From a virus: a stretch of DNA of 46,471 bases. A model generated the notes under the pieces. That model did not search any database. It worked only from the letters and a program-made list of their open reading frames with translations, and was not told the origin of the DNA. Location of the stretch: IMG/VR virus record IMGVR_UViG_3300026522_000008, one strand, 5' to 3'. The position numbers and the translations under genes are program-made. Positions 30,333 to 37,403 of this stretch are shown here, piece after piece; the stretch's first letter is position 1; each line of letters starts with the position of its first letter.

Positions 30333-32189
30333 TTATAGCCAGTTTTCGTTCTGCTTTATCCAGTTTTCTTCGGGAGTGTATTCTTCCGATTGCTCCGACC
30401 TCTTGGTTTTTTCTTTGATCGCTTCTTCATCCTGAAGATGGAAGGAGCGGACGCCCAGGGTATCGGCCGCCGCCAGCGAGTAGACCTCTGCGTCGAGGTA
30501 GTGGTTATCGATGTGGCTCCGTTTCGGTACCCATCTCTGAACCACTCGCCCTCCGGCGGTTTTGACGTTGACCTTGTGCTCCGCTGTGACCTGTTCTGCG
30601 TATTCCCGGTCGCAGCCGGCATAAACCATCCAGCTGCCGCGGCCGTTTGGTTTCTTCATCCTTCCGGCGATCATGTCTTTGTACTTATCACCGTCTACGA
30701 GAACGAGGTTCATTCCGTAGGCTTGCGATCCGGGCTTATTGATTTTCGACAGTTTGAAGTGCGAGAGCATCGGGTTGCTCACGCCCTTGGTCGGGAGCGC
30801 CCATTCCGCGTTCAATGCGCAGAAGTCATAGGTGGCGTCTGCGTCGTATCCGGAATCGACCAGGCAGAGATTTACGACCATTTGCTCTCCGTCTTCTCTG
30901 AAGTACGGGGTGTTCATGATCCTCTCGATGTCCTGGAAAGATAACGCTTGTCCGTGCGCAATGTTCTGACTGGTTATGTAGCTGCCCCACGCTCGAATGG
31001 TCCAGTAGAGGCTGGTTTGCTGAACGTCCACGCCTCCGGTCAGGATCTTCGCCCAGTTCGGGACGGTGAATTCCGGCCGCTCCGTCTGTCTCTGAAGAAC
31101 AACATCCGCGCTGGTTTTCAGCGTGGTGTCTTCCCACGGCTCTGCGAGCCATGAGTTCGTGAAGTTCTGGAGCTTCTCCGGGTCATCCTTTGAATCCAGG
31201 AATTCCTTCACGATTTCTGAAAAACGGACGAACGGGCTATAAAGCGTATTCATCCAGTAACCGATCTTCCGGTTGTACTTTCCGTTCTGCCGGACGGGTT
31301 GCCATTCGCCCTGCCGGAGCATTTGGTCTTTATCCTGATCGGTGATCTTCTCTCCGCAGTTCTGGCAAATGTAGACCGCCATGTCGGCACGATCCTGATT
31401 CGACAGGTCGTCTCCGGATGGGAATTTCAGCTGTTTAAATTTCAGCTCGATCATCTCTCCGCAGTGTGGGCACGGCACGAAGAAGTGTTTCTCCACGTCG
31501 CAGTCCATCAAGGCTTTCCAAATCTGTCCGGTGGAAAGCGTCGGAGTTGACGTCATGTAGATCTTCCGGTTTCTGAAGGTCTTCGTTCTTTCCTTTGCCA
31601 GGGAGATTGGGTCCGACTCCTTTTTGCTGCTTCCTGGGTACTTGTCCACCTCATCTAAAAAGAGGTATTTAATGGCTTTTGATGCCAGGGAGCTCGGGCT
31701 GTTCGATCCGGCGAGGGTTAGGTACATTCCGTCGAACTGCATTTCCAACTTCGAGGATTCGGTTTCCTTGTAAAGTTTCAGGAGGCTCCGGTTCGCCTTG
31801 ATCATCGGCTCGATTCGGTTTTCGCTGATCGATTCTGTCAGTTTGTCTGTCGGGTAGACGATCATGGCAGGCGACGGGTCTTGCATAATCACGTAGCCCA
31901 GCATATTCTGGAGGGCTTCGGTTCCTCCGACCTGCGTCGGCTTGCAGAAGACGATTTCTTCCGTCTCGTAGTTGGTCAGCTCATCCATGATGTCGACGAG
32001 GTACGGGGTCTTGTCGTTTCTCCATGGTCCGGGAAGTGCGGAGGTCTTGGTGTCCAGCACTCGGTATTTCTCCGCCCATTCCGATACGGTGATGTCCTCC
32101 GGCGGTCTTAAAAGACGGAGGGCATCAGCCTGGTACTTCGTTAGCTGATACTTTCGTATCCTTATTCGTTTGTGTTTTAAGGGTTCCAT
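30333..32189 (-). CDS. terL: Terminase large subunit, lambda GpA family (618 aa)
   Basis: VSEWAEKYRVLDTKTSALPGPWRNDKTPYLVDIMD...CKPTQVGGTE (Walker A-like) is typical of Terminase_GpA. A zinc-ribbon-like CPHCGE...CQNCGE is also present. Confidence 0.92.
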   Translation of the reverse strand: MEPLKHKRIRIRKYQLTKYQADALRLLRPPEDITVSEWAEKYRVLDTKTSALPGPWRNDKTPYLVDIMDELTNYETEEIVFCKPTQVGGTEALQNMLGYVIMQDPSPAMIVYPTDKLTESISENRIEPMIKANRSLLKLYKETESSKLEMQFDGMYLTLAGSNSPSSLASKAIKYLFLDEVDKYPGSSKKESDPISLAKERTKTFRNRKIYMTSTPTLSTGQIWKALMDCDVEKHFFVPCPHCGEMIELKFKQLKFPSGDDLSNQDRADMAVYICQNCGEKITDQDKDQMLRQGEWQPVRQNGKYNRKIGYWMNTLYSPFVRFSEIVKEFLDSKDDPEKLQNFTNSWLAEPWEDTTLKTSADVVLQRQTERPEFTVPNWAKILTGGVDVQQTSLYWTIRAWGSYITSQNIAHGQALSFQDIERIMNTPYFREDGEQMVVNLCLVDSGYDADATYDFCALNAEWALPTKGVSNPMLSHFKLSKINKPGSQAYGMNLVLVDGDKYKDMIAGRMKKPNGRGSWMVYAGCDREYAEQVTAEHKVNVKTAGGRVVQRWVPKRSHIDNHYLDAEVYSLAAADTLGVRSFHLQDEEAIKEKTKRSEQSEEYTPEENWIKQNENWL

Positions 32190-32803: not shown

Positions 32804-34135
32804 TCATAGCGTCACCTCCAGCTTCTGGGCCTTCTCTGCCTTCCGGCCGGTGAAGTCTTCCCAGCGCTTCACAATGACGTCGCAGAACTTTTCGTCCAGC
32901 TCCATCAGGTAGGCGTTCCGGCCGAGCTGTTCCGCAGCCATCAGCGTGGATCCGGAACCTCCGAAAAGGTCCAGGACGTTCCAGTCGGGCTTGCTGCTAT
33001 TTTTCATCAGTCTGCCGACTAGCGAGATCGGTTTCATCGTCGGGTGCAGGTCGTTCTTTGTCGGTTTGTTTTCAAAAAGGACCGTGGTCCGGTTCTTGTA
33101 GCTGTCGCGGATCTGGTTGATGTATGTGATAAGGTCTTCCTTCTTCATACTCTGGAAGTCCAGCTCATCCTCGAGGAGGACGGTGTCCTGACTCCGATCG
33201 TCGATGAAGTAGTGCGCGGCTCCTTCTTTCCAGCCGTACAGGATCGGTTCGTGTCTCCACTGGTAATCCTGCCGGCCGAGGACAAAGCTATTCTTTTCCC
33301 AGATCAGGCATTCCGCCAGCTTGAATCCGGAATCGTTGAACGCCCGGCGGAAAGCGAGGCCTTCACTGTCTGCGTGGAAAACGTAGGCCGCGGCTCCCTC
33401 TCGCATCGCGTCAAACATGCATCCGAAGGCTTCATCTAGGAATTGCTCGAAGGTGTCCTCCGCCATGTTGTCGTTCTTGATTTCTCCGTCTTTGTAGTTC
33501 ACGTTGTACGGCGGGTCCGTGATCACGAGGTCCGCCTCGGCTCCCTGAAGAAGGGCGCTCACGTCGGTCGGGTCTGTCGAATCTCCGCACATCAGCCTGT
33601 GGTCTCCGAGGATCCAGATGTCTCCGCGTTTCGTGACGGGGTCCGTGATTTCATCGTAGGCTTCGTCCGCGTCGAAGTTGTCCTCTTCGGGTTCCACGGT
33701 GTCCAGCTTCAGGACGAGGTCCTCGACCTCCGAAGAAGTGAAGCCGGTTTTTGTCAGGTCGTAATCGTTCAGGTCAAGGTCCATGAGGGCTGCTTTCAGC
33801 TTTTCCTCATCCCAGTCACCGCTGATTTTGTTCAGGGCAATGTTCAGGGCTTTCTCGGTCTGCTTGTCTACGTCGGTCACGAGGACGCGAGCCTTTGTGT
33901 AGCCGAGGTCTTTTAATACCTTGTACCTCTGGTGACCTCCGATGATGGTTCCGTCCTTGTTGATTAAGATCAGCCCGACGTAGCCGTTGTCTTCAATGCT
34001 CCGCTTCAGAGCTTCGTAGTCCGGGTCGCCGGGCTGGAGGTCCTGCCGGGGATTGTATTCGGCTGGATGGATATCCGAAAGGCTGACGATCCTTGTGTCG
34101 GCGTCGGCTATCTTATCCTTGACGTCTTGCTGCAT
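32804..34135 (-). CDS. ParB-like nuclease domain fused to N6A/N4C DNA methyltransferase (443 aa)
   Basis: The N-terminus reads IVSLSDIHPAEYNPR...DGTIIGGHQRYKVL (ParB/Srx). It is followed by ITDPPYNVNY (motif IV) and LDLFGGSGSTLMAAEQLGRNAYLMELD (motif I). ATG 34135 is preferred over the upstream alternative start. Confidence 0.9.
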   Translation of the reverse strand: MQQDVKDKIADADTRIVSLSDIHPAEYNPRQDLQPGDPDYEALKRSIEDNGYVGLILINKDGTIIGGHQRYKVLKDLGYTKARVLVTDVDKQTEKALNIALNKISGDWDEEKLKAALMDLDLNDYDLTKTGFTSSEVEDLVLKLDTVEPEEDNFDADEAYDEITDPVTKRGDIWILGDHRLMCGDSTDPTDVSALLQGAEADLVITDPPYNVNYKDGEIKNDNMAEDTFEQFLDEAFGCMFDAMREGAAAYVFHADSEGLAFRRAFNDSGFKLAECLIWEKNSFVLGRQDYQWRHEPILYGWKEGAAHYFIDDRSQDTVLLEDELDFQSMKKEDLITYINQIRDSYKNRTTVLFENKPTKNDLHPTMKPISLVGRLMKNSSKPDWNVLDLFGGSGSTLMAAEQLGRNAYLMELDEKFCDVIVKRWEDFTGRKAEKAQKLEVTL

Positions 34136-34167
34136 GTTCCTCTTCCTTCCTTGTCGTTCAGAGCGCG

Positions 34168-34194
34168 TTCCGGCGGGTTCCGGAGGCCTTCCGG
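34168..34194 (-). promoter_or_regulatory. Three helically phased CCGGAA boxes upstream of the ParB-methyltransferase gene
   Basis: ttccgg occurs at 34168-34173, 34178-34183 and 34189-34194 (spacing 10 and 11 bp), 33-59 nt upstream of ATG 34135. The same hexamer forms the core of the 34805-34982 array. Confidence 0.5.
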
Positions 34195-34277
34195 GGCCCT
34201 GGCGTAACGAAACGCGATAAAAAATTGAGTTCAAATCCGGGAAAGCGTCGGGCTTTCCTCGCCCCGCTTGTGAAATA

Positions 34278-34317
34278 TGCACAAAGTAGTACCTACGAAA
34301 TGTGCAGGTTGCACAAA
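34278..34317 (-). promoter_or_regulatory. TTTGTGCA direct repeat plus TGTGCA/TGCACA hairpin (operator or promoter-region candidate)
   Basis: tgcacaaa occurs at 34278-34285 and 34310-34317, 32 bp apart. tgtgca-ggt-tgcaca at 34301-34315 is a 6-bp-stem palindrome. Confidence 0.4.
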
Positions 34318-34440
34318 TAAAAAGGGCCGGTCCGCAGCGAGGTTCGAACCAGTCCTTCTTCGTGTGTGTAGGTCTCAGTGAACGGGCTGTCTCGACCGCC
34401 TCGCTCCTGATCTCTTAGTCTTTCGACTCTATCATTGTAT

Positions 34441-34982
34441 CATGTGCGCATGGGACACGGTGGGACATCTTGCTCTTGTCTTCCGATGATGTCCTGTCTC
34501 CGAGGTCTCGCCTCGTGTGCTCGTGCCGCCCGGCCTAGTGCTCTCGCTCGCTCGCGCTCTCGCGTCCTTGCTCTTGAGCCCTTGCCTTGTGTGCCCTCAT
34601 GCCCTCGTGCCCGCGGGTCTGCCGCGCTGGCCGTGGTCTGTCTTGCTCTTGTCTCGTGCGTTCATGTTTCTTTCCTTCTCTCAAGCCCTCGGCAGCAGGC
34701 CTCCCTTGTCTGCCGCCCGTCTCTGCTATCCCGCTTTTGCCCCTTCTATTTTTGCCGGCCCTTTAAGGCCGCCCTTGCAGAGCTTCTTATATTTCTAACT
34801 TTTTGCCGCCCGTTTTCCGGTTTAATTTCCGGGTCTTATTCTCTGGTTTTTGTATCCCGGTTTTATTTTCTGGATTTATTTTCCGGGCTTTCGTCTCCGG
34901 TTTTTCTTTCCCTGAAATTTTCCGGCCGATTTTTTTCCGGCTTTATTTTTCCGGATAATTTTTTCGAGTTATTTTTTCGGGT
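34441..34982 (-). other. A-depleted (plus strand), purine-rich-sense non-coding region
   Basis: A hand count gives about 44 A in 540 nt on the plus strand, with about 5 A in 34501-34680. There is no credible ORF with an RBS. Short motif repeats occur: tcttgctcttgtc x2, tgccgcccg x3, tgggaca x2. Confidence 0.85.
34805..34982 (-). repeat. Array of about 13 degenerate 13-14-bp direct repeats (minus-strand consensus roughly A-CCGGAAAA-TAA)
   Basis: The GG of the (c/t)c(c/t)gg cores fall at about 34820, 34832, 34846, 34860, 34873, 34886, 34900, 34914, 34925, 34940, 34954, 34968 and 34980. Intervals are 11-15 bp, each followed by a T-tract on the plus strand. Confidence 0.8.
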
Positions 34983-35534
34983 TTATTCATCGGCCTCTGA
35001 ATTCCGGAGCTCTTCCTGCCGTCTCCGCTTTTCTCTTCGCATATCTGCGATGGCTGCGCATTGCTCGTAGTGCGGGGCTTCGTCGCGGATCCGAATCTGA
35101 ACCCATTCGTTTTCCAGTAAATAATCGAGCGCTGCGTTCTTCTTCCGCTGGCATTGTTTCGTGGAAAAATGGAGGATGTCCGCGATCTCTTCCCATCTCT
35201 TCCGGTCCAGATATCTCAGCTCGCAGACCTCTCGCTCTTCCGACTTCGTCGGGAGGATGTCCAGGATTTCTGTAATCGCGACAAGTGAATCTGCGATCTC
35301 TCGCTTTTGGTCGAGGAGTTTTTCTTCGACATCTGAAATCTTGAAAAGAATACCAGCAGCTCCGTCGCCTTCTCCGGATCCGTGCGGCATCGGGTCGTAT
35401 CCGAGCGCCTTGATTGGATCTCCTTTTTCTTCGTTCAGCCGGATCAGGCGAGCCTGCAGCTCTGCCTTCCGGCGCGTCGCTCTTACATATCTCGAGAGCA
35501 TCCAGTCTAAGATTTCGCGGCCCTCATAATCCAT
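34983..35534 (-). CDS. Sigma-70 region-4-like phage transcriptional regulator (DUF1492/late-activator-like, 183 aa)
   Basis: EREVCELRYLDRKRWEEIADILHFSTKQCQRKKNAALDYLL resembles sigma-70 region 4. GGAGG precedes ATG 35534. Confidence 0.7.
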   Translation of the reverse strand: MDYEGREILDWMLSRYVRATRRKAELQARLIRLNEEKGDPIKALGYDPMPHGSGEGDGAAGILFKISDVEEKLLDQKREIADSLVAITEILDILPTKSEEREVCELRYLDRKRWEEIADILHFSTKQCQRKKNAALDYLLENEWVQIRIRDEAPHYEQCAAIADMRREKRRRQEELRNSEADE

Positions 35535-36971: not shown

Positions 36972-37003
36972 TTAGTCCTCCTTTCCGATGGCTTTCTGGT
37001 TGC

Positions 37004-37316
37004 GTCCCCACTTTGTCCCCATTTTTAGTGGGTACACTTTTTTCCTCAGAAAAGGCTTATTTCCGGGCTTTTTCGGAGGTGTCCCCACTGTCCCCACTTT
37101 TTTTGGAATATACACTCACTTTTTTTAAGATTTTTTCCTTCGAGTGTTCCAGAGAAGGAAAAAAATTAAAAAACAGTTTAGCAATAATATTTAGTGGGTA
37201 CAGTGGGTACAAGTGGGTACAGATGTCTGAAAGCCTTGATTTTGCGGCATTTTCGCGTCCCCACTTTTGTCCCCACTTTTGTCCCCACTTTTCTCTGAAA
37301 CGTTAAAAGTGGGTAC
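37004..37316. repeat. Origin-of-replication iterons: GTCCCCAC(TTTT) and its near-complement AGTGGGTAC
   Basis: gtccccac occurs at 37004, 37081 and 37090, with gtccccat at 37015. The triple tandem gtccccactttt lies at 37257-37292. agtgggtac occurs at 37027, 37193, 37202, 37212 and 37308. The surrounding spacers are AT-rich. Confidence 0.8.
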
Positions 37317-37324
37317 AGATTCTT

Positions 37325-37368
37325 TGTGGAAATGTGGATAACTCGTCAAAAATTGTGGATAACTCGTC
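37325..37368. promoter_or_regulatory. Two perfect DnaA boxes (TGTGGATAA) within a duplicated 15-mer, plus one degenerate box
   Basis: tgtggataactcgtc occurs at 37333-37347 and 37354-37368, and tgtggaaa at 37325-37332. TGTGGATAA is the reverse complement of the TTATCCACA consensus. Confidence 0.75.
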
Positions 37369-37403
37369 GGGAAATTGTTCAAGTTTTTTATTACCTCATT
37401 TTT

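Follow-up and report, generated by a model that had tools for sequence, protein, structure and literature searches.

In the ParR-parC system of plasmid R1 and the TubR-tubC systems of Bacillus and Clostridium plasmids and phages, tandem direct repeats of 11–12 bp are coated by an adaptor protein to form a helical array. The nucleosome, which is left-handed, has a period below the helical repeat of DNA. The p6 protein of phage phi29 binds every 12 bp and that of phage GA-1 every 11 bp, and what is read is a pattern of bendability and not a sequence; with phi29 p6, nucleation occurs near the genome ends, the resulting superhelix is right-handed, and the protein contributes to the early-late switch (PMC10899789). 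Here, an array of short tandem units was analyzed in the virus record IMGVR_UViG_3300026522_000008 of IMG/VR, the whole 46,471-nt stretch of which is called the window below. The phage to which the window belongs is temperate and Epona-like, infects gut Clostridia and has a terminase of the lambda (gpA) type. The array lies on the minus strand between a late regulator gene and the cohesive-end (cos) site, and it is best explained as a phased DNA lattice and not as a set of sequence-specific iterons.

Directly after the regulator stop codon (TAA, 34985–34983), the minus strand could be parsed into 13 gapless head-to-tail units, which covered 175 nt and were 12–14 nt long (mean 13.46). Each unit comprised a 4–6-bp G/C cluster, mostly CCGG-like, followed by an A-rich spacer of 7–9 bp. 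The first units read AACCCGAAAAAAT, AACTCGAAAAAATT, ATCCGGAAAAATAA, and AGCCGGAAAAAAAT, and the last was ACCGGAAAACGGG. The mean pairwise identity among the units was 0.53, and exact CCGGAAA occurred in six copies inside 140 nt. This agreed with a first-pass annotation of the same DNA, which had reported ~13 tandem units of 13–14 bp after the regulator stop, and the repetition was far above chance. The signal of G/C vs. A/T along the array peaked at 13.25–13.5 bp with a power of 31–42. In the Fourier analysis of the G/C indicator over a 195-nt array, the power was 30.6 at 13.25 bp, and the shuffled sequences gave maxima with a mean of 4.5 and a 99th percentile of 8.1. A spectral scan of the whole window yielded 38.7 at the array compared with at most 11.0 in 4,580 other 180-nt segments. 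Thus, the periodicity suspected earlier was supported by computation and was unique in the window. The array spectrum had no power at 10–11 bp (1.1–3.5, vs. 17–31 at 13.25–13.5 bp) or at 27 bp. Tandem Repeats Finder (TRF), which had been suggested for the consensus and copy number, detected the repeat only piecewise, with a period of 13–14 at 34932–34987 and a period of 27 at 34826–34912. The periodic signal extended ~2–3 units into the 3′ end of the regulator open reading frame (ORF).

A search with the conserved block around the cos site yielded 47 IMG/VR and 19 GTDB loci, which represented 38 non-redundant lineages (designated by L numbers). Spectra were computed for each lineage over the 900 nt upstream of the cos block, with the null maximum of 11 as the power threshold. 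The strongest periodicity was at 12.5–14.25 bp with a power above 11 in 25 of the 38 lineages, and it always lay ~380–780 bp to the upstream side of the cos block. The 22 lineages studied in detail had a period of 13.26 ± 0.41 bp. The motif classes differed among the lineages and included CCGG plus AAAAATAA, GGCC, GGGGC plus TATATA, CAGGG plus TAAAAA, and CCCC/GGCC plus A- or T-runs; in some related lineages the spacers were TATATA or ATTTT, and the period was unchanged. The arrays spanned 120–400 bp. The bias of A over T on one strand was not universal, as T-runs or TATATA were found in L002, L035, L064, L078, and L068. In several lineages the first part of the pattern lay inside the regulator ORF, at its 3′ end, and there encoded Lys-rich tails.

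Insertions or deletions of 13, 27, and 80 nt among close relatives corresponded to whole units, and changes of 1–2 nt in the length of the A-runs also occurred. The check proposed earlier, whether relatives keep the array with a varying copy number, came out positive: whole units were gained or lost. The array was absent in MT835543.1, L049, and L043. In L036, the array and the T-poor stretch that follows it were found behind a different upstream gene, which indicated that the array goes with the promoter and cos side and not with the regulator gene. The identity between the window and L004 was 95% for the methyltransferase gene, 88% for the cos block, 82% for the promoter and leader, and 74% for the regulator; the array and the T-poor stretch were hardly alignable. 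Because of this mosaic junction, the non-coding region was regarded as a boundary at which the early and late modules recombine. The array sequence diverged as fast as, or faster than, the adjoining regulator gene.

The periodicity, its conservation without sequence conservation, its place with respect to cos, and the apparent lack of co-variation with the neighboring proteins lead us to infer protein binding, and with it a filament geometry and a function. Our tentative preference, held at less than even confidence, is that the array is a low-specificity platform that is read by its periodicity, and that a DNA-binding protein oligomerizes on it in the manner of phi29 p6. The array would act as double-stranded DNA, in which stiff, narrow-groove A/T blocks alternate with G/C blocks, and a protein would recognize the shape and spacing of the blocks. 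A double-helical property is favored because the strand bias is not conserved, the G/C-vs-A/T alternation is equal on either strand, and the RNA folding is unremarkable. An oligomerizing protein, possibly an HU-like one from the host or a small one encoded by the phage, would place one of its subunits on each unit. Since 13.3 bp exceeds the helical repeat, each unit would be turned relative to the last, by ~94° for a repeat of 10.5 bp and a period of 13.25 bp. Four units (53 bp) would correspond to about five helical turns, and any planar curvature would cancel over them. The complex would thus be a helical filament and not a planar bend, and the analogy with the nucleosome and phi29 p6 suggests that it would probably be right-handed. 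A plausible role of such a coat would be to insulate the late promoter and cos from early-operon read-through, or to organize the last-packaged end of the genome. The 13.26 ± 0.41-bp period held by arrays with unrelated motifs in the 22 lineages speaks for this reading, as it is a p6-type pattern without sequence specificity. The general idea of a protein-coated A-tract array, put forward in the first-pass annotation, thus remains the best reading, and the specific proposals made there failed. A more elaborate version, which we consider rather unlikely, is that the family-wide, sequence-independent 13.3-bp lattice nucleates a right-handed p6-like filament and, together with the T-poor stretch, serves as a directional insulator or switch among early transcription, the late promoter, and cos.

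Several points weigh against a protein-coated platform. Scans of the early-region proteins against Pfam, PHROG, and NCBIfam yielded no candidate of the histone, p6, or HU type. The array is dispensable because some relatives do without it: in MT835543.1 the promoter directly follows the regulator stop, and small ORFs occupy the gap in L049 and L043. Phase coherence alone is no proof of selection, since unit-sized recombination indels preserve the phase automatically, and the 25 of 38 lineages are not 25 independent observations because they are related by descent. The array lies 545–730 bp from the genome end, compared with 46–125 bp for the p6 sites. In addition, a 13.3-bp period implies a very tight or steep superhelix and is without an exact precedent. 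A literature search for a 13-bp periodicity found nothing relevant.

The array might instead be a fast-evolving minisatellite with little or no function, that is, a spacer at the early/late junction that changes by slippage or unequal recombination and provides at most microhomology for module exchange. We regard this as unlikely, although the low identity among the units (~53%), the whole-unit indels, the absence of the array in some relatives, its rapid divergence, the mosaic junction with L004 and a G/C core built from words common genome-wide would all fit. What it leaves unexplained is that unrelated motifs share a non-integer period at the same place in many lineages, and the observed changes of 1–2 nt in the A-runs would erode the phase absent selection. 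Moreover, in several lineages the regulator gene itself carries the pattern in its 3′ coding part, and 200–400 bp of pure filler is rare in compact phage genomes. A function in RNA is very unlikely. The array would then be the 3′ untranslated tail of the early or regulator transcript, with a role in Rho loading, in stability or as a sponge before the late promoter. It does begin at the stop codon without an intervening terminator and is therefore transcribed with the regulator, its context is poor in U, and few start or stop codons are present. Its period is also near the 13 nt per Rho protomer of the RhoTermPredict rule for Rho utilization (rut) sites, which demands 78 nt per hexamer with a C every 11–13 nt, more C than G, and low G (PMC6407284). 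The period of 13.25–13.5 is at or just beyond the upper end of that 11–13-nt range, and the array is untranslated in the window and partly coding in relatives. However, a Rho loading site was rejected on the C/G ratio below 1 in the window (C 0.18, G 0.22) and a G content equal to or above that of C in most lineages, with 33% G in some arrays. The T-poor stretch was an equally poor fit to a Rho site (25–38% G, C/G 0.69–1.46). The strand bias of the array is not conserved, and its RNA folding was unremarkable on both strands (z ~ −1.5). Rfam gave no match at gathering thresholds and, at an E-value threshold, a single chance-level hit (E = 0.2, 21 bits vs. a threshold of 88), and a scan for tRNA and tmRNA found nothing.

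The first-pass annotation had offered the regulator, the ParB-methyltransferase, and TerS as binders of sequence-specific CCGGAA iterons, with three further copies upstream of the methyltransferase gene as additional sites. Such iterons are the least probable of the explanations considered here, and we give them very little weight. CCGGAAA is locally enriched, and the CCGGAAC triple at 10–11-bp spacing is kept in L001, L002, and L004; yet no other lineage with an array has the triple, and the core shifts to GGCC, GGGGC, CCCC, or CAGGG at the constant 13.3-bp period. The lineage comparison showed that the array tracks neither the regulator nor the methyltransferase, and it did not appear to follow TerS. 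The CCGGAAAA array class spans regulators 25–100% identical to that of the window, and the better candidates for regulator sites are the covarying direct repeats at the promoter, which the array lacks. In L044 the methyltransferase is reduced to a 92-aa remnant and the CCGGAAAA array is among the strongest; in L008 the gene is absent and the array is present. L036 and L042, in turn, have the gene and almost no CCGG. A loading site for the ParB-methyltransferase was rejected, because an array can be present where the gene is missing; in addition, the enzyme, which has only the N-terminal domain of ParB, looks adenine-specific. A centromere of the parC/tubC kind, also suggested earlier, has neither an adjacent partition NTPase nor a conserved core sequence in its support; no ParA, ParM, or TubZ was found in the 30.3–46.4-kb part of the window that was scanned. 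TerS is 56–85% identical throughout, and the array motifs differ. This would suit recognition by shape, as in a packaging signal where a translocating terminase or a TerS oligomer meets the lattice 545–730 bp before the terminal cos, and the motor is slowed or prepared as at an extended cosQ. It is also in keeping with such a signal that the array is upstream of cos in every case and downstream in none, the upstream side being the one to which a lambda-type terminase comes last, and that the family is defined by a common gpA-type terminase and cos block. Nevertheless, a packaging signal appears distinctly unlikely. The TerS sites known in cos phages are at or just downstream of the cut (15–29 nt in HK97; PMC11331095), and the candidate TTTCGTTACGC is found there too. 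The promoter, leader, and terminator intervene between array and cos, their distance is loose (~400–560 bp), and the array is absent in relatives with the same cos block and terminase. The proposal of pac boxes likewise gave way to a cohesive end 545–730 bp downstream of the array, beyond the ~200 bp taken as the reach of a TerS recognition site, and a conserved cos block with a candidate TerS site at or after the cut.

The three extra CCGGAA copies do exist, with their 5′ C at 34194, 34183, and 34173 (spacing 11 and 10) before the methyltransferase ATG at 34135, and their conservation was limited to the sublineage of the window (L001, L002, and L004). The tie to the array through the same hexamer was weak. 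CCGGAA has 112 copies on the coding strand of the window, and CCGG is over-represented throughout (458 observed vs. 233–387 expected). The shared hexamer is therefore poor evidence for a common binder, and the chance expectation for an equally tight triple, as estimated from the CCGGAA counts, was ~0.16. A role of CCGG as a methylation target was rejected, since CCGG is common genome-wide and the enzyme looks adenine-specific. In an IMG/VR search for CCGGAAA outside the family, 106 of the 112 other hits were spaced 12/12 or 15/15, consistent with coding repeats; no triples at 13–14-nt spacing were found, and none of the 112 hits had a 13-bp signal.

Other forms of the array were also rejected. 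Classical helically phased curved DNA would call for a 10–11-bp phasing that is not present. A coding repeat or a read-through tail of the regulator was discarded because L001 does not share the open frame of 38 codons that follows the stop, and 13.3 is no multiple of 3. On the plus strand at 34816–34900, neighboring CCGG clusters formed weak 5–6-bp hairpins followed by T-runs, and four terminator-like hits were located in the array. In this lineage alone, antisense transcription could be damped by these hairpins. As a general explanation, tandem antisense terminators were rejected, because the lineages with GGGGC/TATATA units cannot form such hairpins. In MT835543.1, a supposed series of periodic units downstream of cos was dismissed, because the signal there peaks at 8.25 bp and not at 13.

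Two side observations concern the array. The motif TTTTCAG(A/G), with the copy AAAATTTCAGGGAAAG in the window, was seen by eye in the arrays of most lineages; it stood within or at the end of the arrays of L002, L008, L014, L026, L029, L044, L055, and L011, and it was often flanked by short complementary G/C clusters. It agreed at ~10 of 15 positions with the 15-bp CodY box, which is a weak match. In L044, L029, and L055, runs of 7–9 A were found inside the 3′ coding end of the regulator, approximately −720 to −650 from the cos block. These runs could permit transcriptional or translational slippage and thus variable Lys-rich C-terminal tails.

The non-coding control region between the regulator and methyltransferase genes was ~850 bp long, and relatives whose regulators were 93, 76, and 61% identical kept a gap of 840–856 nt. 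In minus-strand order it comprises the array after the regulator gene, the T-poor stretch, the late promoter, the leader with its terminator, and cos, and it is followed by the genes of the methyltransferase, TerS, and TerL (Table 1). The T-poor stretch was found in at least 20 lineages at a length of 100–320 nt and with 4–9% T, and it always ended at the promoter repeats. CACAG, GCACA, and CAGGGC were abundant in it. A shared Chi-like motif was rejected, as the enriched words, such as CACAG and CAGGGC, were those of low-complexity sequence only. All lineages had two direct repeats of 7–8 nt, 10–11 nt apart, ahead of the extended −10. These repeats varied with the regulator: they were TGTCCCA in the window and elsewhere TGTCGCA, TGTCACAC, TCGGACA, CGGACAC, ATAAGACA, ATGCGAC, and AGGACT. 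Because the repeats changed along with the regulator, they are likely regulator sites, and the late regulator probably binds them. A scan for consensus promoters found no −35/−10 pair at the late promoter, which is expected because the promoter is read as activator-dependent. The leader in the window folded with −43.2 kcal/mol (z = −3.4), and a hairpin with a T-run was present at the equivalent place in every lineage. The terminator is located immediately upstream of cos and has to be crossed by late transcripts, which implies an antitermination step. Alternatively, by analogy with lambda pR′-6S-tR′, the promoter-leader-terminator unit may be the source of a small RNA.

Table 1. Features of the window from the primase-helicase gene to the terminase genes, with their positions in the 46,471-nt stretch.
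Feature	Position	Strand	Basis or remark
DUF927 primase-helicase	40070-37404	−	
VRR-NUC nuclease	between primase-helicase and regulator	−	
Late transcriptional regulator, 183 aa, RinA/DUF722-like	34983..35534	−	phrog_36 1e-16; PF05263 on homologues
13-unit array	34809..34983	−	unit parse, TRF, Fourier, whole-window scan
AAAATTTCAGGGAAAG, array copy of TTTTCAG(A/G)	34906..34921	−	spotted by eye
T-poor (~5–9% T) A/C/G low-complexity stretch, aperiodic	34468..34808	−	reaches promoter repeats
Direct repeats TGTCCCA-N3-TGTCCCA at −35	34451..34467	−	the only two copies on the minus strand
Extended −10 TGATACAAT of the inferred late promoter	34434..34442	−	TGnTAnnnT at the same place in all lineages
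Leader, ~115 nt, ending in an intrinsic terminator	34315..34430	−	hairpin and T-run 34355-34315
GTAGGTACTAC, invariant cos-block element upstream of the cut	34286..34296	−	alignment of 24 lineages
GGGCGAGGAAAG, inferred 12-nt cohesive end (cosN)	34253..34264	−	contig termini; gpA-type TerL
TTTCGTTACGC, near-invariant, after A/T-rich block	34202..34212	−	alignment of 24 lineages; ~40–60 nt downstream of the cut
Three CCGGAA(C/G) copies, 10–11-bp spacing	34167..34194	−	38–59 nt before the methyltransferase ATG
ParB_N / N6_N4 DNA methyltransferase fusion, 443 aa	32804..34135	−	PF01555 4e-32, PF02195 1e-4, phrog_498
TerS, 210 aa	32125..32757	−	phrog_57 4e-22; 56–85% identical across lineages
TerL, lambda gpA type (cos packaging)	30333..32189	−	PF05876 1.6e-79, PF20454 5.7e-72

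The cohesive end was deduced from contig termini. Ten contig ends from independent assemblies converged on one 12-mer. Contigs L006, L012, and L215, which belong to different lineages, terminated exactly at ...GCGGGGCGAGGAA(A/G)G, and contig L007 terminated exactly 12 nt earlier. Five contigs began exactly with GGGCGAGGAA(A/G)G, and two more began at most 2 nt away or with the variant GGTCCGAGGAAAG. The termini of the unannotated record MT835543.1 likewise fell inside the cos block. Filled-in 5′ cohesive ends of 12 nt would yield exactly such ends, in agreement with the gpA-type terminase, which points to GGGCGAGGAAAG as the cohesive end; its first five bases are equal to those of the lambda cohesive end. 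Another candidate, CGGGCGGCA, was contradicted by the contig-end mapping. Since the cohesive end maps to 34264–34253, the array is located 545–730 bp upstream of the right, last-packaged end of the genome. In the alignment of 24 lineages, the cos block had the order GTAGGTACTAC, ~17 nt, GCGGGGCGAGGAAGGCCCGA, an A/T-rich segment, and TTTCGTTACGC. The last element is a candidate TerS site of the cosB type, with a position like that of the HK97 TerS site, which is 15–29 nt downstream of the cut (PMC11331095).

The nearest named phage was Faecalibacterium phage FP_Epona, with a TerL identity of 66%; it is a temperate myovirus for which the cos site was not determined (PMC5883640). Prophage relatives were found in the genomes of Faecalibacterium prausnitzii, Oscillospiraceae, Lachnospiraceae, Agathobacter, and related Clostridia. 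The gene order on the minus strand was primase-helicase, nuclease, regulator, the 850-nt gap, methyltransferase, TerS, and TerL. The regulator had a weak similarity to sigma-70 region 4, with a TIGR02937 match under its cut-off. The methyltransferase fusion is likely adenine-specific, as judged from adenine-methyltransferase models of NCBIfam that matched below cut-off. It contained the ParB N-terminal domain alone, and this was the only ParB_N domain in 30.3–46.4 kb. A plus-strand ORF of 211 aa (34435–35070) was considered spurious, because the plus strand there is nearly free of A, and stop codons are thereby removed in several frames. Downstream of the primase-helicase gene, at 36975–37403, iteron-like repeats were observed, namely GTCCCCAC(TTTT) in three tandem copies, AGTGGGTAC in three copies, and TGTCCCCAC. 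They are probably a replication origin.

Among the temperate phages of Faecalibacterium, Oscillospiraceae, and Lachnospiraceae in the gut, Epona-like phages are common, and no study of their control regions is known. The present analysis mapped one such region from the activator sites and the late promoter through the leader and its terminator to the cos block and the cohesive end, and it isolated the 13.3-bp lattice as an element whose pattern persists as its sequence changes. If a protein coats the array, this would be the second phage example after phi29 p6 of a bendability code that takes the place of a sequence code. It would have a period without a described precedent, and it would offer a handle on how these prophages time late expression and packaging. 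If the lattice-filament insulator were true, it would be an architectural control element of a new class, and no described protein-DNA lattice has a period like it. If the array is a neutral minisatellite, it would still be a useful strain marker because of its variable copy number.

Compared with the known systems, the array resembles helically phased A-tract DNA in its A4–A8 runs separated by G/C-rich segments, and it differs in being phased at 13.3 bp instead of 10–11 bp. With rut sites it shares, in the window, an untranslated position after a stop codon, and its regular spacing near 13 nt is close to theirs (78 nt per hexamer); however, rut sites need C above G with low G, whereas the array has a C/G ratio below 1 and, in several lineages, a transcribed strand rich in G. 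The parC/tubC iterons are sequence-specific and stand beside a partition NTPase operon. In contrast, the array units are degenerate, their motif shifts, and no ParA, ParM, or TubZ is adjacent; the relatives of the phage occur as integrated prophages (PMC5883640). Like the TerS sites (lambda cosB R elements, HK97, and SPP1 pacL/pacR), the array is non-coding, lies near packaging genes and carries A-tracts, which also occur in known TerS sites, the minimal HK97 site included (PMC11331095). Those sites are at or just downstream of the cut, whereas the array is 545–730 bp upstream, is separated from the cut by a promoter and a terminator and shows no apparent co-variation with TerS. Phi29 is a protein-primed linear replicon, and the window is from a cos phage with a circular intermediate, in which no p6 homologue was found among the early-region proteins and protein binding to the array is putative. 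The likeness to p6 is nevertheless considerable in form. Both have a period above the helical repeat (12 bp in phi29 and 11 bp in GA-1, 13.3 bp in the array), both would be read as a pattern, and both occupy the terminal part of a linear phage genome. Finally, p6 joins in the early-to-late switch, and the array is situated between the early operon and the late promoter.

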